Source of the DNA: Eledone cirrhosa
Lineage: Eukaryota
Assembly: GCA_964016885.1 (NCBI GenBank)
Contig: OZ024752.1
Coordinates: forward strand, 20,274,001 to 20,338,000
Reading direction: 5' to 3'
DNA: 64,000 nucleotides
The position numbers and the translations under genes are program-made. The notes under the pieces were generated by a model. That model was not told the DNA's origin. It searched no databases and saw only the letters and a program-made list of their open reading frames with translations. This document shows, piece after piece, positions 50 to 63,606 of this stretch; position 1 is the stretch's first letter; each line of letters opens with the position of its first letter.

Positions 50-82
<33 letters not shown>

Positions 83-207
83 AAAGAGAAAATTGAGAGT
101 GTATAACACTCAACTTATCAGATAGGCAGTATATGGTTAGCTCAATGTCTGAAGACAGAGCCGTAATACAATTAACAACAAAGAGCGCTTAGAACATAGG
201 TATATCT

Positions 208-677: not shown

Positions 678-2376
678 GTATTCTTGTGATACCAGATACC
701 AGCGACGTTACTCAGTGTTGTGATTTTGAGAGGTTATTGGCTCTGAAAGCTATTTGCTATGCACGTTGTTGAGTGTTAAATTTGCCACTTGTATTTTGTA
801 TTTAGTATTTTATATTAAGTGGTATGCATAATAATAACCTGCTTCACCTAACCGTATGGAACCATCTGCTTTTGCCTGCTTTTATTCACTGATATGCACC
901 TCAATTGTTTGCCCTTTGATGTTCGCATTGCTATATAAGAATTTGCCTGCAACCTTCCCAGCATATGTTCCTGCTTGAGATATGTTTATGGATACATCTT
1001 GTCAACCAATGATTTTTGCCTGAGTACTCAACTTTATGAATGCACATCCGCGGATTGAACTTTGAAGTATGAACTTTTGGGATTGTCTAACCTAGGATGT
1101 CTCCATTATATTGTAATAGTCCACTCATCTAGTGTGGACATCGCATCTGCTTATAAAGGTCTCATTCGAACACTCTATTGTTTGACTGCTGCTAATTGCA
1201 ACACCTAAAATTTTCTTGTATTCCTGATATATTCCTTATATCACCATGAATCAATATTAGTGTCACCTTATAATTTCTAAATTTTCTTAAAACATTATGA
1301 GTACTTTATATTAGTATTTAACAAAATTTTTATTTTTATTTTAATTTTATTTTATTAACTCAATTTACTGACATTATTTCCAATATTAGGAAACTAGCAC
1401 CTATACTACTATTATCATTACATGCCTTCATTATCATCCATATTATCCTTATTACCTTATTTACCCCCAGTTATTTTTATAAATATGTATTATTTTGACT
1501 GATATATATATATATCCTTATATATATGTTTCTTTTATATATTTTATATATTTTACGTATATCACTTGTTGCACATAGCTTGATAACTTATACCTTTGCC
1601 AGTCTCATCTTTATTCTCACCTTCCTTTATGGTGTATATTTTACTTTATTTTTTATCTAGTTTTTATCTATTTTTATCTCTTAACTTTTTTTAAAAAAAA
1701 TTTTTTTACCATGCATTTTATACTTTTTATATTCTTATTCCTTTATTGTTTATTTCTCATCCATTACGGTGTACTCCTTATGAGTTTCCTACCATGTATG
1801 TTCCTTCCGTTATTTGTCCTTATGTTCCCATATTTTTATATGTTTTTATAATTTATTATATCTCTTTATATTGTACTCCTCCATGTTATATGTCATCGTT
1901 TCTACTGTTATTGCTATATTTTGTCACAGTATGGAGTATGTGCCCATCCGTTTTTGATATGTTATTTGTATTAGTGTATACTTTCTGTATTGCTTATGGG
2001 TGCTTGGGTGTAGGTGCATGCGGGTGCTCATGCTTATACGTATACTTTTATGTGAGTGTATGCATACGTAGCTGTGTGTTAACCAATCACATCATTGCTT
2101 CCATGATTGCCGGTCATAATATAACCCTACCCAACTGTGAGTGATAACATTTTAGATCTGTATCCTTATTAGTATTAGTATATTCCTCATATTCACTATC
2201 TTTTGCTTGATTTTATTTTTTATTTTTTATTTTTTATTTTGTATTTTTTATCTTTTATCCTTTATTCCTTATCTTGTACATGAAAAATACTTTAAATTCC
2301 TCCCACCTTATGATATCCCCACATTATATTCTTCTGTTTTGGATTTGTTAATGCTTCTATACTCTGTATCTACTCT

Positions 2377-2430
2377 TTAAGCTCTGAAGAGTCCCACTTT
2401 TAGTGTGGACGAAACATTGTCAGCAATTAA
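2377..2430 (+). ncRNA. Minimal type I hammerhead ribozyme (pLTR copy 2)
   Basis: CTGAAGA at 2384-2390, stem II 2391-2410, GAAA 2411-2414, predicted cleavage after GTC at 2421. Confidence 0.85.
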
Positions 2431-2469
2431 AGATATACCTATGTTCTAAGCGCTCTTTGTTGTTAATTG

Positions 2470-4103
<1,634 letters not shown>

Positions 4104-6499: not shown

Positions 6500-6630
6500 T
6501 ATGATGATTTCTCACAAATGAAACAGTTCTAGTCCTGTAGAAGCTCTTCTATATTAAAACATTTATACTCTGCTATATATTGAGTACCTTACTTACTGTG
6601 GTTACCTCCGATTCAACCCGGAATAACTTA
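6500..6630 (+). mobile_element. Short PLE pLTR fragment with truncated hammerhead and two-hairpin tail
   Basis: (a)TGATGA ttt ctcac aaa t GAAA c agttcta GTC, then ACTC..TT-GAGT, N8, TACTG and a hairpin at 6601-6627. (AT)n on both sides. Confidence 0.55.
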
Positions 6631-6754
6631 TATATACATATATATACATACATACATATATATATACATACACATACATACATATACATATACATACATA
6701 CAAATACATATACATACACATATATATACATACATATACATATATACATATACA

Positions 6755-8115: not shown

Positions 8116-8699
8116 TAGGTGTGTTTGTGTGTAGTAGATATCCAAGGTGGGAAAAAGGAAAACAGTGCTCCATCAAATTTGAGAGCTGATAAATATATAT
8201 ATACATACACACACACACACACCCATATATATATATGTAGTAGTTTCTTCAGTCTACCAAATTTCACTGACAGAGCATTGGTGAACCTGAAGTTATAATA
8301 GAAGAAAATTGTCCCAAGGTAGCACACAATGAGATTGATTCCAAAAGCACATAGTTGCAATGTGAACTCCTTAACCACACAGCCATATTTGATAGTTAAG
8401 AAATATCAAGAGACCAATAAAACAAGAAAATAAGGCAAAACAATAAATAAAGAGAACTAAAATTCCAGTGGAGAAACAAAGACAAAACAGTTCAAGAAAT
8501 TTAGAACCTGTTTAAAAAAGTTCCAGAGTTTTTCAATGAAGGTTAAAGAAAGCAGAAATTAATAATACAAGTAGCTTGCATTCCCCTAGTTCTATTCCTT
8601 TGTGGCAAATACAATTTAATTAATAAAGTTTAATTAGCCATAAATGAATACATACCATATGAATATTTTATACCTTCAATTACAGAGTTAACCCTTTAG

Positions 8700-24404: not shown

Positions 24405-24574
24405 TTATTTATTTATTTATTTATTTATTTATTTGTTTACATGCACAGACTCTTCTACACACACACAACATTTAGGAAAACGGAAACAAAATACACAAAA
24501 AAAACAGACATTTTATTTCTATCGTAATCAAGTGCGCTAAACCTATATTGTTTACATTCTGTGTTTTTCTACGG

Positions 24575-25804
24575 ATGGGTAGAAATAACAAAATTGCCAT
24601 GGTGATATCCATCGATGAAATTTGCGACAAAACTGGTCGATGTCCAAAAATAGAACATTGCCCGGAAGATCACACCTGCCATATCTGTACGGAACCCGAA
24701 AACTCGTTCCGTAATCGCTGGGTCGAATGTGGAACCTGTCGCATCTCTGTCTGCCTTCAATGCGCCACAGGCTTCCGGAAGATCCCAGGCCAAAATAAGA
24801 AACATCACATTGCTACGATGGATAGACTCTGGGAGATGGTCCAGCTAACAAACTGGTCCTTTCAGTGCCTGGGCTGTATGCCTGCTTCTCCCATTACTGC
24901 GGAACAACAACAAAGACCGAAGATCGTGTCTTCTACCATTGTTCCTGAACAACAACAACAAAAACCGAGGATCGTGTCTTCCTCTACCATTGTCGCTGAA
25001 CAACAGCAAAAACCAACGACCGTAGCTTCTGCTACTACCCCCGTTGAAGGACTTCATCAACAACAGCAACCCATGTCTTCCTCACCCGTTACTTTTCAAC
25101 AACAACAACCGACGACTGTGTCTTCTACCATTCCTGTTGAAGGAGAAGAACAACAACAAAAACCGACCGTCAATACGGAGTTTGAGGAAATACGGCAAAT
25201 GATTTCCGCTTTAAGTCAAGAAATAGCGGAAATAAAATCAAGCGTTCGCGTAGAACCCCACAATGAGGGATCTTACCGGAGTGCCTTGTTAAAAAATCTC
25301 CGCGTACCTCATGTTGAACCTAGACGCATTGAGAATGCCACTGAAACTGCAAACCACGAAGTGATTGCCATCGGTGTGCCGGAAGACATAGTTGATCTTC
25401 AGGCATTTGCTACCAGTTCATCCAAAGACCTGGGCTGTGCTCCCGCAAAGGGTGCTCTACGCCTTGGCCGACCAGGCCCGAAACCCAGGTTAATTAGACT
25501 GTCGTTTTCAAACTCGGCTGAGGCACGTTCATACCTTGTAGCCTCTGATAAAGCTAGGCGTGAAAGTCGGATTGCTTTCCGAACACGTCCTGGTCTTCCA
25601 CCTGATGTCCGCCCAAAGTTGCGTGCTGCAGCTTCCCTAAACCGCAGCTCGGCAGAACATGAAAGCTTCAGCCTACGAGATGATGGGCAGATATGGAGGT
25701 TTGTTAAGGCTGGCGAATCATGGAAAAGAGACACCAGCTGGTCTGAAAACAGTGTACCCACAACAACTGACAATAAAGAAACTGAAAAAACTCTGGGAAA
25801 CTAA
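24575..25804 (+). CDS. CR1 ORF1 (PHD-like finger, Q/P/T-rich linker, coiled coil, RRM-like domain)
   Basis: First ATG at 24575. CHIC...WVECGTC...VCLQC...FQCLGC; EEIRQMISALSQEIAEIK; IGVPE...RLGR...KPRLIRLSF. Confidence 0.88.
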   Translation: MGRNNKIAMVISIDEICDKTGRCPKIEHCPEDHTCHICTEPENSFRNRWVECGTCRISVCLQCATGFRKIPGQNKKHHIATMDRLWEMVQLTNWSFQCLGCMPASPITAEQQQRPKIVSSTIVPEQQQQKPRIVSSSTIVAEQQQKPTTVASATTPVEGLHQQQQPMSSSPVTFQQQQPTTVSSTIPVEGEEQQQKPTVNTEFEEIRQMISALSQEIAEIKSSVRVEPHNEGSYRSALLKNLRVPHVEPRRIENATETANHEVIAIGVPEDIVDLQAFATSSSKDLGCAPAKGALRLGRPGPKPRLIRLSFSNSAEARSYLVASDKARRESRIAFRTRPGLPPDVRPKLRAAASLNRSSAEHESFSLRDDGQIWRFVKAGESWKRDTSWSENSVPTTTDNKETEKTLGN

Positions 25805-28623
25805 ATCAGAACAACCTGCCATCCCCTGCACATAATCATAGACTGGAATCAAAGTACAAACTGTTGTCCTTGAATGCACGTAGTCTATGCAATAAGATTC
25901 ATCTTTTTGACTCCTACGTCAAAAGTATCAACCCGGACTTCATTACAGTCACGGAAACTTGGGCACATCCCTTACTCTGTGATGGGGTTTTCAGCATGAC
26001 TGGCTACAACCTGTTTCGTAAAGACCGTATTAATCGTCGTGGTGGTGGTGTAATGGTCTACGTTCGGTCAAATCTGTCGGCAATTCCTTGTGCTGATTTG
26101 AACCAATCACAGCAGGAAGTTTTTTTCTGCGATATACGTATGACCATGTCAACACTGCTACTTGGAGTCGTTTACCGTCCCCCAAATTACCATCAGGACA
26201 CTCAACTTTGTGATATCCTCAGAGCTGCTGCCAGGAAGACAGCCACTTATGTTTTCATTGCAGGTGACTTCAATCACCCTGAGATTGACTGGGAGACCTT
26301 TCGTTGGCCGCCAAGTGCAAATGACTTCCTTGAGCTGGTGCTGGACTCGAGTTGGTCCCAGGTGGTCACCTCCCCAACGAGAGGTGACAACACTTTGGAC
26401 CTACTCTTCACCACTACTCCTGAAACGGTCATTAGTGTTACTGCTGGGGAACCTTTAGGTGACTCTGATCATGCTATGATCATTGCCAATCTATCCCTCA
26501 TGGGCAGTAACAAGAACCACAACCATCTCCAAACTGCTCACTTTGACTGGAATAGAGCAGACTGGAACTGTTACTGCACCGAGTTGCAACGGCCAAACTG
26601 GCTTGAGTTCTATGACTCTGGAGATGTCAACACTGTACTCCAGAACATCCTGAGCTCAATATGGACAGCATGTGCAGCATCGGTGCCACGTAAGCGGAAA
26701 AAACATCCTAAAAGCGCAATTTGGGAGACTGCAGCAGTCCGTCTTGCCAGAAAAGAACGGCGCAATGCTGAACGTGAGTACAAACTTCACAAATCAGACA
26801 TTAATAGGAAGAGGCGAAATAGATCGTCCAACCACCTCAAACAGGTGACAAAAAAGGCAGTGCTTCAATTTGAGCAGCGCATAGCAACCAGCCCTGACAG
26901 TAAGGTGTTCTGGAAGTATGTTCACTCAAAGCAGAGGCCTCACTCTCCAGTTGGTCCTCTTCGCAATCCCCACACAAGCCAGGTTACTGACGACTCCAAG
27001 GAATGCGCAGAGCTCATTGCTGAATGCTATGCAGGCATTTTCACCATTGAAGACCAGAGTGTACCATCTCCACCACCTATGACACCGGACTCTATTACAA
27101 CCATGGAATTTACACCTGCAATGCTGCGACGTCACCTAAAAAATAAACGCAACCATGCCTCTCCTGGTCTTGATGGTGTTACGTACCTGCTTCTTAAACG
27201 TGGTGGGTACTTCCTTCTACGCCAGTTATCACGCTTCTTCCAATTCTGTCTGAACAACAGTGCTACTCCAGAACAGTGGAAAACTGCCAGTGTAATTCCT
27301 CTGTTCAAAAAGGGTGACCGCACATCACCTGTGAACTATCGTCCAGTCAGTCTTACTAGTTGCATCGCCAAACTGATGGAATCCTGTGTCAGAGAAACAC
27401 TTTGGAACTTCTGGAGCTCTCACAGTCTTATCCGGCCCTCGCAATTTGGATTTATCCCCAACTCCAGCTGCTGTGATCAACTTATAGAGTTTCTTGAGGA
27501 CATCAACCGGATCACTGATGGCGGCTCATGGGTGGATGTTGTTTACCTTGACTTTGCGAAGGCCTTCAATTCTGTGCCACACAAAAGGCTTATGGCAAAA
27601 CTCTCTGCAATGGGTGTGAAGGATGATCTTTTTAACTGGTTGAAGTCCTTCATTCTCAGTCGAAGAGAGGTAGTCACGGTTTTGGGACAGCATTCCTCAC
27701 CATATGAGATGTCATCTGGTGTACCTCAGGGATCTGTTCTTGGCCCCCTTTTGTTTGTGGCATATATTAATGACATAGATGCCAACTTAAGGAATGCCAC
27801 AGTACTAAAGTACGCAGACGACATCAAGCTGTACCTTGAGATAAAAAGGACAGATCCTGAACACTATAGATCTTGCTTGCAGTCTGACCTGGACACAATG
27901 CAACAGTGGATCTCAGACTGGCAACTCAAGCTAGCTGTGGACAAGTGCACCACCATGCATTTTGGGAGTAAAAACCCAGCGTCCACATATTCCCTCCACA
28001 GCACTAATATCAAGAAGTCTTCCTGTGAACGTGACCTGGGCATTACGGTCAGCAGCGATTTGCGTTGGACGAGGCACGTCTCTAAAATTGTCAAGAGGGC
28101 CGAGGGTGTCTTAGCATCACTCAGCAAGACCTTTGTCAGCCGCTCTCCAGATATCTATTTAAGGCTGTATACAGCTATGGTGCGACCACACTTAGAATTT
28201 GCATCACCAGTCTGGAACCCCTATCTTGCTCAGGACATTGACCGCCTGGAAACTGTTCAGAGACGTGCAACCAAGCGAATACCCTCCATCAGGCATCTAC
28301 CATACTCTGATCGCCTTGCTTCCCTGGGCATGGATTCATTGAAGCTCCGACGCCTGGCAACTGACTTGGTAAACACCCACAAAATTGTTAACCATGTTGC
28401 CAACAACAACCCTGAGTGCCTTTTCGATTTCCATGTGTCTAACACACGTGGACATGCCCACAAAGTAAGAAAACAGCACAATTCCCATGACTTTCGGAAA
28501 CATTTTTTCACGCTCAGAGTTGCTGAAGCATGGAACAAACTACCTGCATCAGTTGTTAGCTGTCGAGACGCTGCATCCTTTAAGGCCTCCATGCTTCCCG
28601 AGATCCGCCAACACTACAGCTAA
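25801..28623 (+). CDS. CR1 ORF2 (APE endonuclease + reverse transcriptase); no initiating ATG
   Basis: LNARS, VTETW, GDFN, LDL, SDH; NYRPVSLTS, YLDFAKAF, GVPQGSVLGPLLF, YADD; C-terminal RGH..K and FF..RV...WN.LP as in CR1. The frame is open from 25786. Confidence 0.95.
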   Translation, partial: LNQNNLPSPAHNHRLESKYKLLSLNARSLCNKIHLFDSYVKSINPDFITVTETWAHPLLCDGVFSMTGYNLFRKDRINRRGGGVMVYVRSNLSAIPCADLNQSQQEVFFCDIRMTMSTLLLGVVYRPPNYHQDTQLCDILRAAARKTATYVFIAGDFNHPEIDWETFRWPPSANDFLELVLDSSWSQVVTSPTRGDNTLDLLFTTTPETVISVTAGEPLGDSDHAMIIANLSLMGSNKNHNHLQTAHFDWNRADWNCYCTELQRPNWLEFYDSGDVNTVLQNILSSIWTACAASVPRKRKKHPKSAIWETAAVRLARKERRNAEREYKLHKSDINRKRRNRSSNHLKQVTKKAVLQFEQRIATSPDSKVFWKYVHSKQRPHSPVGPLRNPHTSQVTDDSKECAELIAECYAGIFTIEDQSVPSPPPMTPDSITTMEFTPAMLRRHLKNKRNHASPGLDGVTYLLLKRGGYFLLRQLSRFFQFCLNNSATPEQWKTASVIPLFKKGDRTSPVNYRPVSLTSCIAKLMESCVRETLWNFWSSHSLIRPSQFGFIPNSSCCDQLIEFLEDINRITDGGSWVDVVYLDFAKAFNSVPHKRLMAKLSAMGVKDDLFNWLKSFILSRREVVTVLGQHSSPYEMSSGVPQGSVLGPLLFVAYINDIDANLRNATVLKYADDIKLYLEIKRTDPEHYRSCLQSDLDTMQQWISDWQLKLAVDKCTTMHFGSKNPASTYSLHSTNIKKSSCERDLGITVSSDLRWTRHVSKIVKRAEGVLASLSKTFVSRSPDIYLRLYTAMVRPHLEFASPVWNPYLAQDIDRLETVQRRATKRIPSIRHLPYSDRLASLGMDSLKLRRLATDLVNTHKIVNHVANNNPECLFDFHVSNTRGHAHKVRKQHNSHDFRKHFFTLRVAEAWNKLPASVVSCRDAASFKASMLPEIRQHYS

Positions 28624-42849: not shown

Positions 42850-45800
42850 CTAACTTAAAAACAGTGACACACTGAATCAATAGATGAAATATGAATCTGC
42901 GAGCTACCAAGCACCCACGTGAAGCGCCAACCCAGAGACCCTCCCCTACGAGTGTCGACAAATGCCCAAAACTCCGAGTTGGTACCATCAATGTAGGCTC
43001 AATGAAAGGAAGAGCAGGAGAAATCGTAGAAATGCTAGAGCGAAAGGAAGTTGATGTATGCTGTGTGCAAGAGACTAGATGGAGAGGAGGGTCTGCTAGA
43101 GTCCTTGTAGGAAAAAGCCAGTGCTACAAATTTTTCTGGGTGGGAAATGACGATGGGATAGGTGGTGTAGGTATACTATTAGCTGACAAGTGGGTAGATA
43201 AAGTAATCTCAGTGTACAGGGTAAATGCAAGAATCATTAAACTCAGACTAGTCCTGAATAAGACAATTACCACAATAATATCAGCTTACGCACCCCAATC
43301 GGGGCTGCCAGACGAACTTAAGGATAGGTTTTACGAGTCCCTAATACACACTACTGCTCTAACAGACGACAAGGACTTCCTAATCATTGCAGGAGATTTT
43401 AACGGACACGTAGGTAAACACTGCGACGGCTTCAATAGAGTACATGGAGGCCATGGAGTTGGCACAAGGAATGAGGAAGGATTCAGACTTCTAGAATTCT
43501 GCGACGCCAATGACATGTCGATATGTAACACAAACTTTAAAAAACCCGACAACCACCTGATCACCTATAGATCAGGGGAGCACTCTAGTCAGTTAGATTT
43601 TATCCTCACCAGAGGACGTGACAGATGGACGGTCGTAAACACAAAAGCCTTCCCTAGTGAGGAATGTACATCCCAACATAGCTTAGTTGTCAGCGACCTC
43701 ACGGTCAGAACTAGACGAGCCCTGAAACAGAGGCCAACCTGGAGAAGAAAGATCTGGAAGCTGAAAGTCCCCTCAACCAGTAACAGATTTAAAGATATTT
43801 TACTCAACGTCTACGACAGTAAAGAAGAACAGATAGAGACATTTAACGTAGAAGAGAACTGGGAGTTCCTAAAAAATAACTTACTAGAGGCGACGGATGA
43901 GGTTTGTGGCTGGAGTAAGACCTCAAGCAGGAGGAGAGTGACTTGGTGGTGGAACAATAAGGTAGATGAAGCAGTCAAGGCCAAGAGACAGGCATGGAAA
44001 GAATGGAAGAACGGGGGGAGCAGGGTACATTACATAGAGACCAAGAGGGAAGCTAGGTGACAAGTATACTTAGCTAGGAGGGAAGCAGAGGATAGAAAAT
44101 TCAAGCATGTTTTACAACGTGAGGACCAGAAACAGGAGGTATTCAAGATTGCGAGGCAGTGTGTCAGAGATAGTTGTGATGTCATTGGAGAGAAGTGTAT
44201 CCGGAATGATAAAGGTGAGCTTGCCCTCACAAGTGCTGAGAAGAAAGATGCATGGAAGAGTCATTATGATAGATTACTAAATGAGGAGAATGCATGGGAA
44301 GAAGAGACCCTACCCCACGTAGACCCTATAGAGGGACCGGCAGTACAAGTCAGCGGCAGCGTAGTAAGTAAGGCAATCAGAGATATGAAGATAGGGAAGG
44401 CAACCGGTCCATCGGGTATAGCTGCCGAGATGCTGAAGGCATCTGGGTCTGTAGGTCACACTATAACCACACGTATCGTTAACCAGGTAATACTAGAGGG
44501 GGCCATACCAAAAGATTGGTGCAGTAGCATCATTGTCAACTGCTACAAAGGTAAAGGCGATGCACTAGATAGAGGAAACTATAGAGGTATAAAGTTGATG
44601 GACCAGGTCATGAAAGTAACAGAAAGAGTTATAGCACAGCTGATTAGGGACCGGGTGAATATAGACGAGATGCAATTTGGGTTTGTACCAGGGAAAGGCA
44701 CCACTGATGCCCTCTTCCTTGTGAGGCAATTACAGGAAAAGTACCTAGCTAAAAGTAAGCCACTCTACTTGGCATTTGTCGACCTTGAGAAAGCCTTTGA
44801 CAGAGTTCCACGTGCAGTAATCTGGTGGGCTCTTAGAAAACTAGGAGTAGATGAATGGCTTGTGAAAGCGGTACAAGCCATGTATAGGGGAGCAGTCAGC
44901 AAAGTTAGGATTGGCAATGAGTATAGCGAGGAATTTAGCGTACAGGTTGGGGTCCACCAGGGCTCTGTTCTTAGCCCTCTCCTGTTCATCATAGTCCTGC
45001 AGGCAATAACGGAGGAGTTTAAGACCGGATGCCCATGGGAACTCCTGTATGCTGATGACCTCGCACTCATAGCTGAATCTATGGTAGAACTAGAGAATAA
45101 ATTCCAAACCTGGAAGCAGGGACTAGAGAGAAAGGGCCTCAAAGTCAACATGACAAAGACTAAGGTCTTTATAAGTAGACGAGAAAACAGAACCCAGATC
45201 CCCTCAGGGAAATGGCCTTGCTCAGTATGTAGGAAAGGTGTAGGTAGGAACTCCATTCTCTGCCCCAAATGCAAACAATGGGTACACAAGAGATGTAGCG
45301 GGATCTCAGGAAGCTTAATTAAGAATGTAGGATTCACATGCAGCAGCTGTGCTGAAACAGCAAGCAAACAGCCACAGGAAACAAGTACCACCAATCTCTG
45401 GGAGGGCCCTGTAGAAACAGTAGACAGCTTCTGCTACCTAGGTGACCGAATTAGCAACGGAGGTGGGTGCTCAGAAAGTACAATAACTAGGGTAAGAACG
45501 GGATGGAAGAAGTTTAGGGAACTACTACCACTGCTAGCTGCAAAAGGCTTCTCCCTCAGAATGAAAGGCAGACTGTATGATGCGTGTATCCGAACAGCGA
45601 TGTTGCATGGTAGTGAGACCTGGGCGCTGAAGGTGGAAGACTTACGTAGATTAGAGAGAAACGAAGCCTGCATGCTCCGATGGATGTGTAACAGTAATAT
45701 ACGTGAACGACAAAGCATAAAGTAATTGAGAGAGAGACTGAGCATAAGAGGAATCAAATGCTGCGTGCAGGAGAGGCGGTTACGCTGGTATGGACATGTG

Positions 45801-55928: not shown

Positions 55929-55986
<58 letters not shown>

Positions 55987-56129
55987 ATTAAAATACTGGA
56001 GCGTGTTGGAGTTAAACACCCTCTTCGTATTATAGAAATGACAGTAAAAGGTATAGCTCAATGTAATTAAACAGAGCCGAAGAATTATGAAAATAAAACA
56101 AAGAAGCCTTCAATACATCAAAAGTCTTT

Positions 56130-56174
56130 ATTAGCCAACAATGTTTCGTCCTATTAAGGACTCATCAGGGCAAT
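56130..56174 (-). ncRNA. Minimal type I hammerhead ribozyme (3' pLTR)
   Basis: attgcc CTGATGA gtcc ttaata ggac GAAA c att GTT ggctaat. Confidence 0.88.
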
Positions 56175-56420
56175 CAAAACCACAAGAAGCACTATCGGCC
56201 AATACAAGCCAAAAACTCCGAAGAATATGGAGTGTACATACACTAAAGTATTGGAAGATTATGGGTAAAAATATATAATAAAAATCACTAAGGAGGTGGA
56301 TAACATTTTGAACCATATTACAAATATAGTCCAAAGCAAAAAAAACTAGAGCTAAACAAAGGTGGTTATATAGAGCGGGAATTATAGTACTAGATGTAAT
56401 ATAATATAATATAATATACT

Positions 56421-58940
56421 TGTAGTGACCTACATTCCGCGGGCTCACATACATTCTCTGTGCGTGATTTGGCTCAGTTCAGCCAATCAGCGCCAGTAGA
56501 AGAGGATGTATCCCTACGCGCCCTGAGGAAGAAATTCCCCGCGAAGATTTGAAGAATCTCTCTCTTGTACCGGAAACTTCAAGCCAGCAACACGCATAAT
56601 GTAACGGTGAGATTTGCACCCTAGCCTCGCCGGCTTAACGGCACATTCCCTTTTGTAACCTCTTTGTATCTGTAACTTCAACCATATAAATAAACAAACA
56701 TTTCATCTCTAATTACTGCTGTTGAAATCGTTGTTATGTTACTCGTGTCTCAATGAAATCTATAATCCATGCTGCTGGAATTGGCGACCTGACGAAAGGA
56801 ATATTGTAAATAGATGGTAAATAGATCGAGGGACCTTCCCTCACGTCTATGTCAACAAGATAACCCAACGAGGATGCTATCACTTACCACACTGGCAACT
56901 AACGACCTTCAATCATCTACCCTGTTAAAGTGGCGACTACTCTATAACCAATAACTGCTAAAGTGGTGACCGACGTAAGAATTTTACGCACCCCTTCTTT
57001 TTCATTCAGTTGAACTTTTATTGCCACGTTTCCAACCTTTTCGCAACTTGCGAAAATAAAAAATATTCCTTTTAAGATTTTTGAAAAATTAGCAGTATTT
57101 CAAAAACTTTTCGCCACGAAGAAATTTCAAAATGGCTACCGACAAGTCCTGTCTTCGATCAACAAAGACAGCAGCAGCAGCGACAACATTGTTTAGCCAC
57201 TGACCAAAACAGGGAACAGTGAGTGGCAGCTTCATAGCCTTACCGATGCAAACCACCACACATCGGAAATTTCAAAACGGCTTGTAACTTTATCGACGCA
57301 ACCACCATACCTTCTGTCTCGTTACCACAGGGACTCGAGAATACATCTAATCCCTAACGGCATTAACAAACTTCTTTTTCAGTTTTCAGATAGAACTAGT
57401 GTCTGTACACTGGTGATGTGTGAACTATTTGACTTTGAAAAACTTTGAACTTATTGAGCAATTTCTCTGCTCCCTTAGATTGACTTTGAATTATCAGTTT
57501 GTTACATTCACATATTTCTTTGTAGAATGCATTTGCTTGTTTTGTGCTCTTTTGCTATTTGTTTGCTCATGGTTTTTGTTCATTCACATTCTTTGCTGTT
57601 TTACATGCCTGCATATGCACACATTTTTTTTATCACACACCAACATGTTGTTCTTGGTATATGTTCTTCAAACGTAATATTCTGCGAGTCCCTTTTCACC
57701 TGGTTGAGATGCTGTCACATGCTAGCAGCTCACAGAGCTTAATCCACTGGGTTCAAACAGGCACCGCAACACGAGAATTCTAATTGCAGCTGAACTCAAA
57801 CAGCTTCGCATCTCGTTGCACACTGATCGTCCATGATGGCCATCCGTCTTGTTGTTTTTGCCCGACTCGCTGGGAAGGCAACAAATTGAACTGGACTTGT
57901 CAATATTTCAGCCACTTCTGTAGATTCGCCCGAATTATGGAATTTACACTGCAACCCACCTACAGATTAAACTTGCCTTTTTTTCTTTACAAAGCAACCA
58001 GCCATTTTTTCCTGGCTCCACAGCACATTCGACAATACATCTGGGGGCCATTCTCGCCAGCACTGGTAAACTACCATAATAGCTTCGTTCACAGCTACTG
58101 GTACAACGCTTACCATTAACATTTAATGCAAGAACAGCAACTTCGCCCATGTCAGACTTTATCTGTTTTCTGGTAGGCCCTTGAGGGTCTCGTTTAAACT
58201 ACAAAACAGCTAGTCATTTGACAGCGGCTCAACACGGCCCGTCGCGCCTAATTTATTTTTTGTTCTTGCATGAATCTTTCTGCTCAATTATTTTTTCACT
58301 GATGTGCTCTTTCAGCATTTGTTCTTGCTGATTCAATAATATGTGAGTCCTTGGTTTCTTCGTTATCGATTTTCGGCTGAAAATCTGGTTGGAGGTGATG
58401 TAGTGACCTACATTCCGCGGGCTCACATACATTCTCTGTGCGTGATTTGGCTCAGTTCAGCCAATCAGCACCAGTAGAAGAGGATGTATCCCTACGCGCC
58501 CTGAGGAAGAAATTCCCCGCGAAGATTTGAAGAATCTCTCTCTTGTACCGGAAACTTCAAGCCAGCAACACGCATAATGTAACGGTGAGATTTGCACCCT
58601 AGCCTCGCCGGCTTAACGGCACATTCCCTTTTGTAACCTCTTTGTATCTGTAACTTCAACCATATAAATAAACAAACATTTCATCTCTAATTACTGCTGT
58701 TGAAATCGTTGTTATGTTACTCGTGTCTCAATGAAATCTATAATCCATGCTGCTGGAATTGGCGACCTGACGAAAGGAATATTGTAAATAGATGGTAAAT
58801 AGATCGAGGGACCTTCCCTCACGTCTATGTTAACAAGATAACCCAACGAGGATACTATCACTTACCACACTGGCAACTAACGACCTTCAATCATCTACCC
58901 TGTTAAAGTGGCGACTACTCTATAACCAATAACTGCTAAA
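56421..58940 (+). mobile_element. Non-autonomous LTR retrotransposon (Ty3/gypsy, CsRn1-like) nested in the PLE 3'UTR
   Basis: 542-bp LTRs (56421-56962 and 58399-58940; 3 mismatches seen), 4-bp TSD TACT, PBS TGGTGACCGACGT resembling tRNA-Trp, purine-rich tract ggttggaggtga before the 3' LTR, 1436-bp interior without gag/pol. Confidence 0.92.
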
Positions 58941-60399
58941 TACTTGTAACAATATTAAAATTAAAATTAAAATTAAAAGCACAATATACATAAGTATATA
59001 TATACGCACACGTACGCACATATACATATACATCAATACACATTTCCACCATTAACAGCACAAATTAAACCTTATTAAGAGTTTAAATACAAATAAGCAT
59101 AATAGGAATAAAAATAAAAATAATACGTATATCTAATATATAGTATAACATGAAGTAATGAAATGATTAAAAGTAACACATAATATATAATAAACTATAT
59201 AATTATATAATATATAATATAATATAATAGATAGTCTCCGGTTAATTTACACAAACAATATAGATGTCACAATAACACTATAATAATAATATATAATATA
59301 TAATGGCATGTAAGTTAACAAATCAATTCATATAGAGTTACAGAGTAGGTGAGAAAAAAAATATAAATTGTACAATACCCAAAATTATGATGGTACAAAA
59401 ATATAAACATCTTACATGATATATCAAATTTAACATATCATAATGGTACATAAAAATCATCGGTAAGTAATAAGGATCAATAGTACATTTACAAAGAGTT
59501 GAATAACAACTTCAATATAAAATAATGAACATAATATAATATATAATTACTTATAATTACAAGGTTGGTAAACAGACACATATGTGAATGAGTGAATAAG
59601 GGCCAGACAGAAAATATTATGCACAGTAGTATTAATAAATAAATAAATAAAATCAACCGGAAATCAAAAAACAAAAACAAAAGTATTTACTTAGGTCTCA
59701 CATGCAGTTAAGTAAAAACTTAGGAAACAACCCGGATAAATGAGTAGAAAACCCTATTTGATAAATTAATATTGAAAATATTTAAAATACCTAATAAGGC
59801 AATACAATATTAACTATGGTTTAAGTAATCAAAATCACTAAACATTAATATTTCACTATAAAAACATATAGAAAGGGATGAAATATTCTACTATCATTTA
59901 CATAACGATATCTAAAAAACTGACTTAAGCAGAATTATGGTAGGCTAATAGGGACAGAAAAAAAGAAATGTATGGAGGATACAAAGGAGCATAAAATCAT
60001 AATCAATATACTGTATTATATAATAGAAAGGAGCATAAAAAAGGGGGGGATTAAATATAATCATAATATATTTGAAGGGGTTAGCAATAAGTTTATGTGT
60101 GCATGGGGGGGGGGGGGGGGGGTATCCAAAGAAGAATCCAAATAAAATAAAATAAAATGAAATAAAATAATATAAAATATATAATCAGATATATACTCAT
60201 AAGGTGTTAATAGTGAAAATTTAATGTGTAAGAAGATAGATATGGTATAGTAGCCAAAAGATTATGAGAGCTAGAATAAATGGTTGTCAAAAACCAATGA
60301 TAATAATGATGATAATAATGGTGGTAAACAAAAAGAACCTAAACTAAAAAAATAAGTAATGGAATATATCAGCTAATGGATTCAATTTACACTACTAGA

Positions 60400-62718
60400 A
60401 CCTTTAGGTTTATAATAAAAGTAAGAATTAGAAATAGTGTGGGGGCAAGAAGAGAATATCTCAGACTTTCTATTAAGTAAGGATTCACTAGAGAAAATTA
60501 TAGAGTGTGTCTCGAGGATACAAAGCATAAACGATGTTCTTAGAGTGGCAGTTACCGTTTAAAGGGCAGTTAGCACTCACTCTAGAGTTACACTTCCGGG
60601 TGCTATTGATTGGCTGAAGTAGTGATGCATTACACGTAGGATTACTATTAGATAAGGTCTGCTCTGGTGGTAAGGCATTTGCAGATCTGTTCAGACTAGT
60701 AGTATGTAGAGAGGAGTATCCATCCCTAATTTTCCTATTGTTAGTGCTAGCTAAATGAGAACTAATATTAGGGGTGGTAGAGAATGAAAGTTTAATAACA
60801 TTTTTATTAAAAATACTATGGTATTTATAAGAAGGGGGAAATTTTTCTCTAAGATAGAAAAGAAAGACCTAGGGATATAAGTTAATACTTCCTGATTAAA
60901 TGGCGGGTTAAAATAAGTATTTAGTCTCCTTCTATTTTTATCCTTTCCGACTCTACCATTATCCAATATCCCATTATTAAGACTAGGGTTACTACAAGGA
61001 TTAGTTAAAACCGCATTATTAGAATCAGCCGAAATTCCATTAAGTCTCTTTCTGTTTCTACCTCTAGTAGATCTGCTGCTGTCTGGAATCCTATCAAAAG
61101 GATTAGGGCCAATAATAGGATCAGTAGAAACAACATTATTAGAATTAGATCTAGCAAAAGCATCACCAATGAGTGAGCGCTCAGAGGGTTCGACTTGATT
61201 CCTAGAGGTATTATATTCCCTATTACGAATCCGGTGGGTTAACTTATGGATGGGTTCAGATACACCTATGTAATTTCTACGATTATTATGCTTCCTACTC
61301 CCATTCATGGCCATGTTATGGGATATTATGTTATTATTATTATAAGTAAGCGGAGACTTTCTAAGGTTACTATTATTATAATGTATTTTACTAGAGTAAC
61401 CGGAATTAGCTAGGGTATTATTATAGTACTCCGCATGTTCATTAAATGTTCCTACGTCCTTAGAGAGTGGAAATCCTATTAGATACACCCTTAATTATAG
61501 AGCTTATCATAGATTTGGGGTGGCTAGAATTGGGACTAACATAAGAAAGTATTTCATTAGGCTTATGGAAGGGTTTAAAACTATTAGTGACCAAGTCCAA
61601 AGTCACATCTAAAAAGTTGACCGCTCTATCGTTTCTATCTATCGTGATCGAAAGGTTATAGCTTTTAAAAAACTTATAAAGCTTCTTCTTATTATGCTCG
61701 ACATTGTTGGTGTTAGAGTTAATCACAAACAATGCATCATCACGATATAGTCCGCCTTTAAGGTGCGGAAAGGTAACATATAGTTCATTTAGGAGGAACA
61801 ACCCAACAAGATCAGTTACCTGGGCCGAATCACTCGAACCCATTGTAACGTCGAAATTGTTGGGCGTGTTTTTACGGGTCCAAAATGTGTCCTCAAAATT
61901 AATGATAGTTCTACGCGCTGCTAGTATAATATCTACCTGTGATCGTGTAAGGCTGGACACTCTCATGGTCAACATTAAGGCTTTATTGAGGAGGATGGGT
62001 GAAATCGATGTGTAGTAGGCATCAATATCGAACTGGATAAACTTATTAGATTCAAGTTTATTAATCCCAGAGAACCAATCTATAACTTCCTTAGTGTTCC
62101 CCCATAGGTTAAAATTAACTTTATCCCTAACATCTGGTATAATAAGGTCAAGGATTTTTTTACTGATTACGGCTATATCGGACTTAGAAGGACAGATGAG
62201 TCTAACAGAGGGGTTACTAATGAAGTCTACCTTATGATCCTTAAGAGTGAATCTCGGTTCTCTAGGGTAATATGGCTGGGTATACTTATCAAGGCCGAGG
62301 TCCGAGACTATTTTAAGACCCTCACTATTGATATGGTTCAAATTATCTAGCGTAGTCTTTTTATAATTTCTATGCAGCTCCTTATAAATAAAGTCACGGT
62401 AAGCACTGTAATCCATAGAGTATAGATTCTTAGTCTTATCCGCCGGGACAAGAATAGACTTATTCGCACTAAAACCCTTAACAATATTTTTAAGTCTAGA
62501 CTGGAACTTATCAAATTTATTATAATTTCTATGTCTATTATTTGGCCTATACTTAATATTTTTGACAAGAGAGAGTAAGTCACTTTCAAAATTATCTAAT
62601 AGAACATTATGTGGTGGGCTCTTATAAGTTTTGAAGCCATAGTTATTAAAATGAGTTCTATTCCTGGGGTCCTTCCTATTCCTATTAATATCATAGTGGA
62701 AAGCACGCCATCTAATCC
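60400..62718 (-). pseudogene. PLE reverse transcriptase / GIY-YIG ORF, frameshifted
   Basis: ADKT, TLKDHK..F..NP.VRLI.P.KS, FIQFDI..YY.SI, FDVTMGS.D, GLYRDD, VNFLDV, FNPPF, CNS...NCPLNGNC...NIVY, LLNRKSE..S.CPH. Frameshifts near 61465, 60835 and 60710. Confidence 0.9.
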
Positions 62719-62888
62719 TTTTTTTGCTTTGGACTATATTTGTAATATGGTTCAAAATGTTATCCACCTCCTTAGTGATTTTTATTATATATTTTTACCC
62801 ATAATCTTCCAATACTTTAGTGTATGTACACTCCATATTCTTCGGAGTTTTTGGCTTGTATTGGCCGATAGTGCTTCTTGTGGTTTTG

Positions 62889-62933
62889 ATTGCCCTGATG
62901 AGTCCTTAATAGGACGAAACATTGTTGGCTAAT
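62889..62933 (+). ncRNA. Minimal type I hammerhead ribozyme (inverted pLTR)
   Basis: CTGATGA 62895-62901, stem II gtcc/ggac, GAAA, c att GTT. Identical to 56130-56174. Confidence 0.88.
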
Positions 62934-62974
62934 AAAGACTTTTGATGTATTGAAGGCTTCTTTGTTTTATTTTC

Positions 62975-63023
<49 letters not shown>

Positions 63024-63029
63024 GTAAAA

Positions 63030-63222
63030 GGTAAACAGAAATAACAACACAATCGGTACAGTATATGGAAGGGATATATTAGGTTAACGCTTGAAATAGC
63101 ATTTCGGACACTAGTCCTTCATCAGAAGAAAGAATGAGAAAGAAGATAGATTGAGGGGACCGGTGGGTTGGAATTGGAAAAGATGTCTTGAGATAAAAAT
63201 AACAGGTCCATTCATGTTGACA
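63030..63222 (-). mobile_element. Short PLE pLTR fragment with hammerhead-like motif (63090-63128)
   Basis: ctt CTGATGA a ggac tagt gtcc GAAA tgctat TTC aag. Flanked by (AT)/(ATGT) tracts. Confidence 0.6.
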
Positions 63223-63239
63223 TATATATATATATATAA

Positions 63240-63606
63240 TATTAAGGATACTATTTATAGTTATGTATATACTATACTATATACAACTATAAACAGGTAA
63301 GGTCAGTAATTAATTACTACCTTATTACCAGTAAGATAAATAGCTCAATGTAAGAACATCATTTGTTATACAGAGCAGTAATATAGAATACACAAGAATC
63401 AAAGCTATGTTAGAACATTTAATTGCTGCCAATTGTTTCTTCCAAGCCTAGGCTTGGAGTCTTTGGAGCATTATTAATAATGTTTGTACATATAATCAGC
63501 TTCCTATTCCTCTGAAGAATCATACAGATACATATTGTGGACAACAGTGTGGGATGGATGCGGCATATATTATGTTATACTATAATTGTACAATAAGATT
63601 CAAAAT
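63240..63606 (-). mobile_element. PLE pLTR fragment with mutated hammerhead (~63418-63470) and two-hairpin tail
   Basis: gct CCAAAGA c-tccaagcct aggcttgga-a GAAA caattggc agcaattaaa is colinear with the hammerhead of element 82-2472. (AT)n on both sides. Confidence 0.7.

Follow-up and report, generated by a model that had tools for sequence, protein, structure and literature searches.

A bulged hairpin, present twice in the leaders of Penelope-like elements assigned to the Hydra clade, lies next to the ends of their insertions

Introduction

For about two decades Penelope-like elements (PLEs) have been known to have an optional one-sided tail and an inverted pLTR, neither of which has a known cause in the sequence. 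Two described groups come closest to the elements considered here. One is the Hydra clade of PLEs, for which the features stated in the consulted portions of Craig et al. (2021; PMC8557442) are an RWK motif, a DKT motif, a CxCX5C linker and, C-terminally, a GIY-YIG domain with CxxC and CxH. The other is the Poseidon-clade element PAc (Frangieh et al., 2024; PMC11167929); according to the sections of that paper drawn on here, its reverse transcriptase (RT) has two internal start sites, one at each boundary of the tail, RNA 3′ of these sites is needed, both target strands are cut and a dimer is modelled.

The elements described below, found in a 64,000-nt stretch of the genome of Eledone cirrhosa (contig OZ024752.1, positions 20,274,001 to 20,338,000; here called the window), are like the Hydra clade as presented in those portions of PMC8557442 in RWK/RWR, DKT, the CxCX5C linker, CxxC/CxH, the pLTR hammerhead and the (TA)n targets, and differ in that one of them (family 2) is about 4.5–4.8 kb long, against less than 3 kb for typical Hydra elements. 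They resemble PAc in that an optional one-sided tail lies between two putative starts, both downstream of the hammerhead, in their AT-rich targets and in a probable need for RNA 3′ of the starts (PMC11167929, sections as above). In PAc, however, the starts lie inside the ORF, in an AC-rich stem-loop, and the tail measures 30–40 bp, whereas those predicted here lie in the 5′ UTR, with a tail of 55–125 nt (same sections of PMC11167929). Moreover, each of the predicted Hydra-clade starts is marked by a copy of one conserved hairpin, while for PAc no anchor motif or one-A-one-B rule is named in those sections of PMC11167929.

Results

Four copies of the hairpin in the window

A preliminary description of the window had reported a conserved, covarying motif (hairpin 1, then TACTG, then hairpin 2) in the 3′ tails of four PLEs. 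All four sites were borne out in position and in letters, with spacers of 8, 9, 9 and 8 nt between hairpin 1 and TACTG, and each tail reached (TA)n as claimed. The pattern describing the motif matched 26,493 times in the 3.0-Gb source genome, against 51 matches for the reversed pattern, and gave no hit in 30 order-3 Markov simulations of the repeat-masked window. At the first 30 genome loci, truncated copies aside, a hammerhead core or a variant of it preceded the pattern by about 45–75 nt. The further claim that a hammerhead precedes each site was correct for copies 1 and 2, in which the core is intact; in copy 3 it is degenerate and in copy 4 its 5′ end is cut by (TA)n, and hammerhead cores of these last two families were found in other genomic copies. 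The fold drawn for hairpin 1 was likewise recovered for the isolated copies 1–3 (z −2.7 to −3.3), whereas copy 4 formed the outer stem only (z −2.1) and, in its 68-nt context, an alternative fold won over hairpin 1. Whole two-hairpin regions, as originally drawn, folded modestly better than shuffles (z −1.0 to −2.2).

As had been supposed, the hairpin is absent from Rfam: no covariance model matched the window at its gathering score, and a search of four loci with E up to 1 gave only hits to miRNA families; these fell on simple repeats outside the leader and scored far below threshold. For a likeness to a SECIS element or a tRNA D-arm, too, Rfam gave no match. A covariance model built on hairpin 1 recovered the four sites in the window and one possible fifth, orphan copy at 8161–8192 (− strand; 22.6 bits, rough E 0.0036). 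It reads GCTC..GAGCACT and directly follows a (TA)-rich run; no hammerhead was seen there, and we regard it as uncertain.

Hairpin 1, hereafter hairpin A, occupies 140–161 (−) in family 1, with GCTC, a 4-bp upper stem, a TT bulge and GAGC. The hammerhead core lies at 223–254 (−), and the rest of the tail, 82–139 (−), contains TACTG (131–127) and a family-specific hairpin (about 113–92) and ends in (TA)n, at a point that is 3–4 nt before a second hairpin (B, see below) in a related full-length subfamily (L094 vs L104). The inverted arm of this element, 2202–2472 (+), has its hammerhead core at 2384–2415 and ends about 4–6 nt before hairpin A. In family 2, hairpin A is at 56056–56077 (−), the hammerhead core at 56143–56168 (−) and the rest of the tail at 55983–56055 (−), its end corresponding to a position 6 nt before hairpin B of the full-length leader. 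This copy is the 3′ end of a 5′-truncated, frameshifted element with an RT of predicted Hydra-clade type and the start of the GIY-YIG linker, 60488–62723 (−), that is 97.6% identical to the intact L091 ORF. Its inverted arm, 62719–62979 (+), has a hammerhead core at 62895–62920 and ends about 6–8 nt before hairpin A. Thus both inverted arms halt just before hairpin 1, as the preliminary description had it. Family 3 has a hairpin A with an extended upper stem at 63343–63376 (−), a degenerate hammerhead core at 63435–63468 (−) and the rest of its tail at 63236–63342 (−), the end of which corresponds to a position about 5 nt before hairpin B in full-length leaders (L194, L195, L201 and L202 vs L200 and L204). 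Family 4 is represented by a stub at 6502–6633 (+) that consists of a 5′-clipped hammerhead (6502–6524), hairpin A (6567–6585, +; ACTC/GAGT, a compensatory outer pair) and a tail into (TA)n.

Other features of the window lie around these copies. A 2.5-kb insertion at 56425–58939, not present in the intact family-2 copy L091, is flanked by direct repeats of about 550 nt (about 56410–56960 and 58390–58960) and looks like a non-autonomous LTR-type element within the PLE 3′ region. A stub of another hammerhead-like family (as in L043 and L257) at 63000–63160 (−) lacks the bulged hairpin and ends in (TA)/(CA) repeats. Two LINE-type elements with long endonuclease/RT frames occur at 24476–28623 (+) and 42888–45725 (+), the former inserted in a 30–32-nt minisatellite that covers about 17.9–39 kb, and a homogeneous 47-nt tandem array of about 100 units runs from 50443 onward.

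Assignment of the elements to the Hydra clade

No Pfam family was found for the ORF pieces of the window or for four full-length proteins, so the clade assignment rests on motifs. These place the elements, as far as protein motifs can, in the Hydra clade of C-terminal-endonuclease PLEs, and the earlier statement that all four sites lie in PLEs was upheld. RW[KR] near the N-terminus is present in L091 and in 24 of 28 aligned proteins, with RWR in families 3 and 4. The DKG motif is modified to DKT in L091, L208 and L015 and, among the 28 proteins, reads DKT in 23 and DKS in 4 and was not found in 1. The CxCX5C linker, the C-terminal GIY-YIG domain, CxxC and CxH are all present in the L091 protein; the linker pattern occurs in 25/28 proteins (2 truncated, 1 variant), and CxxC and CxH close the protein in 25/28 (3 truncated). 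By eye, no conserved cysteine pair (CCHH motif) was apparent between the GIY-YIG halves. The hammerhead in the pLTR and the insertion into (TA)n are both as in the Hydra clade, and the hammerhead and flank of L121 match the Penelope-1_NV row in File S2, within the consulted part of PMC8557442. A Nematis/Neptune PLE was rejected, as it needs a CX2-5CxxC linker and DKG where CxCX5C and DKT are present, and so was a Naiad/Chlamys PLE, which needs an N-terminal endonuclease and no canonical hammerhead, whereas the elements here have a C-terminal GIY-YIG domain and a hammerhead.

Intact ORFs of the family-2 type occur in many near-identical copies in the source genome, in units of about 4.5–4.8 kb with an 894-aa ORF, and an ORF of this kind also follows in families 1, 3 and 4; the RT regions of the local families are about 66–72% identical. 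In family 2, an asparagine-rich insert separates RT and linker (60754–61494 in the window, and the L091 ORF), and N-rich inserts are reported in rotifer PLEs in the part of PMC3846280 consulted. About 1.6 kb of 3′ region precedes the family-2 hammerhead, and with the insert this makes family 2 longer than typical Hydra elements.

A second hairpin in full-length leaders

At full-length tandem junctions the ‘tail’ proved to be the first part of the next unit’s 5′ leader, so that the term 3′ tail used in the preliminary description is apt in part only. In families 1, 2 and 3 a second GCTC..TTGAGC hairpin (hairpin B) follows a few bases past the point at which tailed copies end, and then comes the ATG. 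Because B lies just beyond the tail end, it is missing from all four window copies. Hairpins A and B are spaced about 70–125 nt apart in the families of the source genome. A coding role was rejected, as the motif is upstream of the ATG in all full leaders. In family 4, for which full leaders with an ORF were found at 3 loci (L015 = L347, L215 and L361), there is an atypical B candidate, GCAC/GTGC without the bulge, seen in 2 full leaders. This family has at least 22,333 hammerhead sites, many of them tiny fold-back stubs with arms 2–370 nt apart. Some of its copies (L192 1456–1700, −; L190/L191 1456–1600, +) carry two or three tandem repeats of a 69–83-nt segment that begins at hairpin A and either stops at the tail end or extends into candidate B, which hints at re-priming, or at jumps from template to template, between the sites of the two hairpins.

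A fifth local family (L064, L092) has a hairpin A with a mismatched 5′ arm (GGTC), keeps GAGCACT and lacks TACTG; its inverted arm nonetheless halts about 5 nt before hairpin A. Several hammerhead families of the source genome have no such hairpin, among them a 468-nt tandem repeat (L031–L046; C1 30.83–30.84 Mb), retrozyme-like with one hammerhead per unit, and an 81-nt tandem array (L052–L060; C1 19.34–19.37 Mb) with hammerhead-like cores in some units.

To look beyond this genome, metagenome contigs were scanned with an RT alignment, and the best 78 of 330 relatives formed the outside set. Among the hammerhead-to-ATG leaders in these 78, two hairpins were present in 33/35, one in 1/35 and none in 1/35, the 35 including a few duplicates, and the hairpin pattern occurred 113 times in sense and 4 times in antisense. 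After clustering of the best 78 of 330, hairpin A was found in 32 and B in 25 of 46 hammerhead-like clusters, some of which are chance hammerhead-like matches; of the 14 clusters without A, 8 offered less than 90 nt downstream, and the other 6 lacked it over 200 nt. The outside families among the best 78 of 330 share 34–88% RT identity (median 49%), and in them A starts 41–70 nt after the hammerhead core, B follows 55–83 nt after A and ends 13–47 nt before the ATG.

The heptamer that ends the motif also occurs at at least 22 places in the part of the supplement of PMC8557442 that was available, a count from which line breaks may hide more cases. At 4 of these 22 it sits in the bulged hairpin, in three Hydra consensus sequences (coral and sea cucumber), one of which has both hairpin copies before its ATG. 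By eye, 0/17 heptamer places in Naiad or Chlamys records of that same material lie in a bulged hairpin, and neither does one further Hydra place.

Conservation and covariation of the hairpin

In the consensus from 32 families among the best 78 of 330 relatives, GCUC is followed by an upper stem with a variable loop, then by a 2-nt bulge whose first base is U and by GAGC, to which ACU is added in 29/32; the bulge itself read UU in 22, UC in 6, UA in 3 and CU in 1. Since the families had been chosen on GCTC and GAGC, covariation was tested on the upper stem, which is outside the selection. Its first three pairs were paired in 31, 28 and 25 of the 32 families (best 78 of 330), where shuffling led to an expectation of 23.9, 14.9 and 13.3 and 0/2000 shuffles reached each value. 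This signal requires the 2-nt bulge, as no other bulge length from 0 to 4 gives it. In a MAFFT alignment of 36 sequences 94.9% of cells were paired and 47 cells had changed on both sides; 0/500 shuffles reached either figure, and slid partners paired in 22–59%. On an RT tree made up solely of sequences gathered in this analysis, without reference Hydra RTs, co-changes in pair 1 stood out (3, vs 1–2 for slid partners), and those in pairs 2 and 3 (8 and 9) were weakly above the slid values (up to 7 for each); in 9 sister pairs of families pairing was kept in 3/9 changes. The GCUC/GAGC stem is nearly invariant and so shows almost no covariation (1/36 changed). In hairpin B mainly one C-G pair above the bulge is kept (25/25 paired, shuffle p about 0.05). 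As a strand test, G-U and A-C were counted, giving 6:4 in A and 1:5 in B, and the isolated hairpins folded slightly better in antisense, the sense strand being lower in 8/32 (A) and 5/25 (B).

Judged from these alignments, the upper stem of A covaries, and the idea of a conserved, covarying cis-element in PLE tails is supported. The larger module drawn in the preliminary description is not general: TACTG follows the hairpin in 1/32 outside families (best 78 of 330 relatives), and no fold recurs consistently in the spacer in which its hairpin 2 had been drawn (25 spacers, z −2.6 to +1.6). The conserved module is hairpin 1 only, that is GCUC, the upper stem, the 2-nt bulge and GAGC, and TACTG and the former hairpin 2 are local features of these families. 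Thus the feature is real and its first interpretation partly supported.

Insertions end just before one hairpin or the other

Ends of family-2 insertions were mapped, with gaps allowed, at the first 91 of 2,564 hammerhead matches, taken regardless of the motif. Near A there were 41/91, at 5–12 nt before the hairpin, and near B 37/91, at 6–9 nt before it, 33 of them at exactly −6. The remainder comprised 4 copies that run on into the ORF and 9 that end elsewhere, mostly through small deletions or alignment limits; none of the 91 stopped at the longer TA runs that follow B before the ATG. Most ends show 1–3 nt of TA microhomology, which blurs end positions, among them those of family-4 A ends. 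In the first 30 of the at least 22,333 sites of that family, ends lay near A in 13 (between −14 and +1) and near B in 11 (between −4 and −10); 2 copies ran on and 4 belonged to neither class.

Of the divergent, two-armed insertions among the 91 family-2 copies, 16/16 had one A end and one B end, for which the probability, if the arms chose independently, is about 1.5e-5 by our own arithmetic. Family 4 gave 6/7 A+B pairs, the exception having a deletion through hairpin A and continuing into the tail, and 5/5 classifiable pairs at protein-selected loci were A+B. The long (tailed) arm may be either one (L091 vs L099, L102). In the outside hosts, 25 rows from the best 78 of 330 relatives contained 12 mappable ends that fit, 8 of them at 0–12 nt before A and 4 at 2–4 nt before B, and 2 that did not (L145, at −16 vs a distant reference, and L157, which has one hairpin); 6 were unmappable (no close reference, or contig end) and 5 were full leaders compared with another family. 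These results show that the one-sided ‘tail’ is the A-to-B spacing. The 5′ junctions of 26 ATG-containing family-2 copies were scattered, with no clustering at the hairpins, so no unit-length circle model is claimed.

Discussion

Two hairpins, A and B, lie between the hammerhead and the ATG, and copies end a few bases 5′ of either. We infer from this arrangement that each hairpin is probably an anchor for RT, with cDNA starting just 5′ of it. The role in RT loading that had been suggested for the motif is plausible. In the sequence of events that we envisage, a tandem read-through RNA would bind the RT-endonuclease at both hairpins, the GIY-YIG domain would cut (TA)n, one target 3′-OH would prime next to A and the other next to B, and the two cDNAs would join head to head. 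The arm primed at B would copy hairpin A and so have a tail, the arm primed at A would have none, and B itself would never be copied into an end. On this scheme tail length should equal the A–B spacing, 55–83 nt in the outside families and about 70–125 nt here, because the B-primed arm copies A and the A-primed arm does not. The strict A+B pairing speaks for the use of both sites in a single event; if the ends were chosen independently, half of the pairs would be AA or BB. The published Poseidon-clade case (PMC11167929) is a precedent for two internal starts; the hairpin motif was not found by eye in the stretch of the Poseidon element in Fig. S1 of that paper.

The main rival to RT anchoring, which we consider unlikely, is that the GIY-YIG endonuclease recognises the hairpins in single-stranded cDNA or DNA and trims or resolves the intermediate at a fixed distance from them, so that the mapped ends would be cut sites. 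The wobble counts are compatible with action in the antisense strand, the tail is ascribed to endonuclease-mediated resolution in the portions of PMC8557442 used here, and the Drosophila Penelope tail is required for endonuclease recognition (as cited in the consulted sections of PMC11167929). Trimming would, however, require a cDNA start downstream and a cut-back in nearly every copy, and 0/91 end between B and the ORF; furthermore, in the work of PMC11167929, as far as its sections drawn on here describe, genomic ends coincide with RT start sites mapped in vitro.

Two sharp classes of ends would likewise be produced if the hairpins set the 3′ ends of the RNA, through termination or cleavage by a host nuclease just 5′ of each, and RT started there. 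Two independent RNA species would be expected to give AA, AB and BB pairs, yet 16/16 were AB, and internal initiation has been shown for another PLE (PMC11167929, sections as above); we think this improbable. We attach similarly little weight to the proposal that the twin motif serves the leader in translation or as a promoter, its coincidence with the ends having another cause, such as TA microhomology. The position of the motif is fixed in the 5′ leader, PLE promoters reside in the pLTR (again the consulted part of PMC11167929) and most ends have the 1–3 nt of TA microhomology noted above. Against this, a short fixed offset to both hairpins is kept across families with unrelated spacers, the longer TA runs of the leader are unused, and a covarying stem of variable length is unlike a double-stranded DNA site. 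The hairpins may have an additional role in translation. That nothing functional is involved and the likeness reflects shared ancestry of related families is largely refuted and very hard to credit, as the core is kept twice per leader among proteins about 49% identical, with unalignable spacers and compensatory pairs; it may apply to TACTG, which is common to the local families and almost absent elsewhere.

Returning to the anchor reading, a stronger form of it is possible, and we advance it tentatively. Twin priming could be programmed, one RNA with two anchor hairpins engaging two RT-endonuclease subunits, each of which would prime one end of the double-strand cut just 5′ of its hairpin. 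This alone would create the inverted pLTR and the one-sided tail, and other PLE clades might do the same with paired anchors of their own. Similar components exist in other retrotransposons. In LINE-1 twin priming, both target strands prime on the element RNA and head-to-head inverted arms result. There, use of the second site is opportunistic and the two arms have no overlap, whereas here hairpins would fix both sites, and each arm is a copy of the same pLTR. The 3′-terminal stem-loops of LINE/SINE pairs and the R2 3′ UTR are cis RNA structures recognised by RT for target-primed reverse transcription. They lie upstream of the start and are copied, whereas the hairpin described here would lie downstream of the start, is omitted from that arm and is duplicated.

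No description of the hairpin was found in the open-access literature that our search covered; the consulted portions of PMC8557442 make no remark on it, and in that paper the word ‘hairpin’ occurs 0 times in the supplement text examined and ‘stem-loop’ 0 times in the main text available. It is thus a duplicated cis-element, apparently unreported, within a known retrotransposon clade, and it predicts both insertion ends. As a diagnostic feature, the twin hairpins can serve in annotating Hydra elements and their short stubs, of which the source genome has tens of thousands. For the RT family that is closest to telomerase they provide an RNA ligand candidate, and they offer a rule for setting a template start at an internal position of an RNA. 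The pair predicts both ends of an insertion and their pairing; it likely marks the start of reverse transcription, which would explain the one-sided tail.
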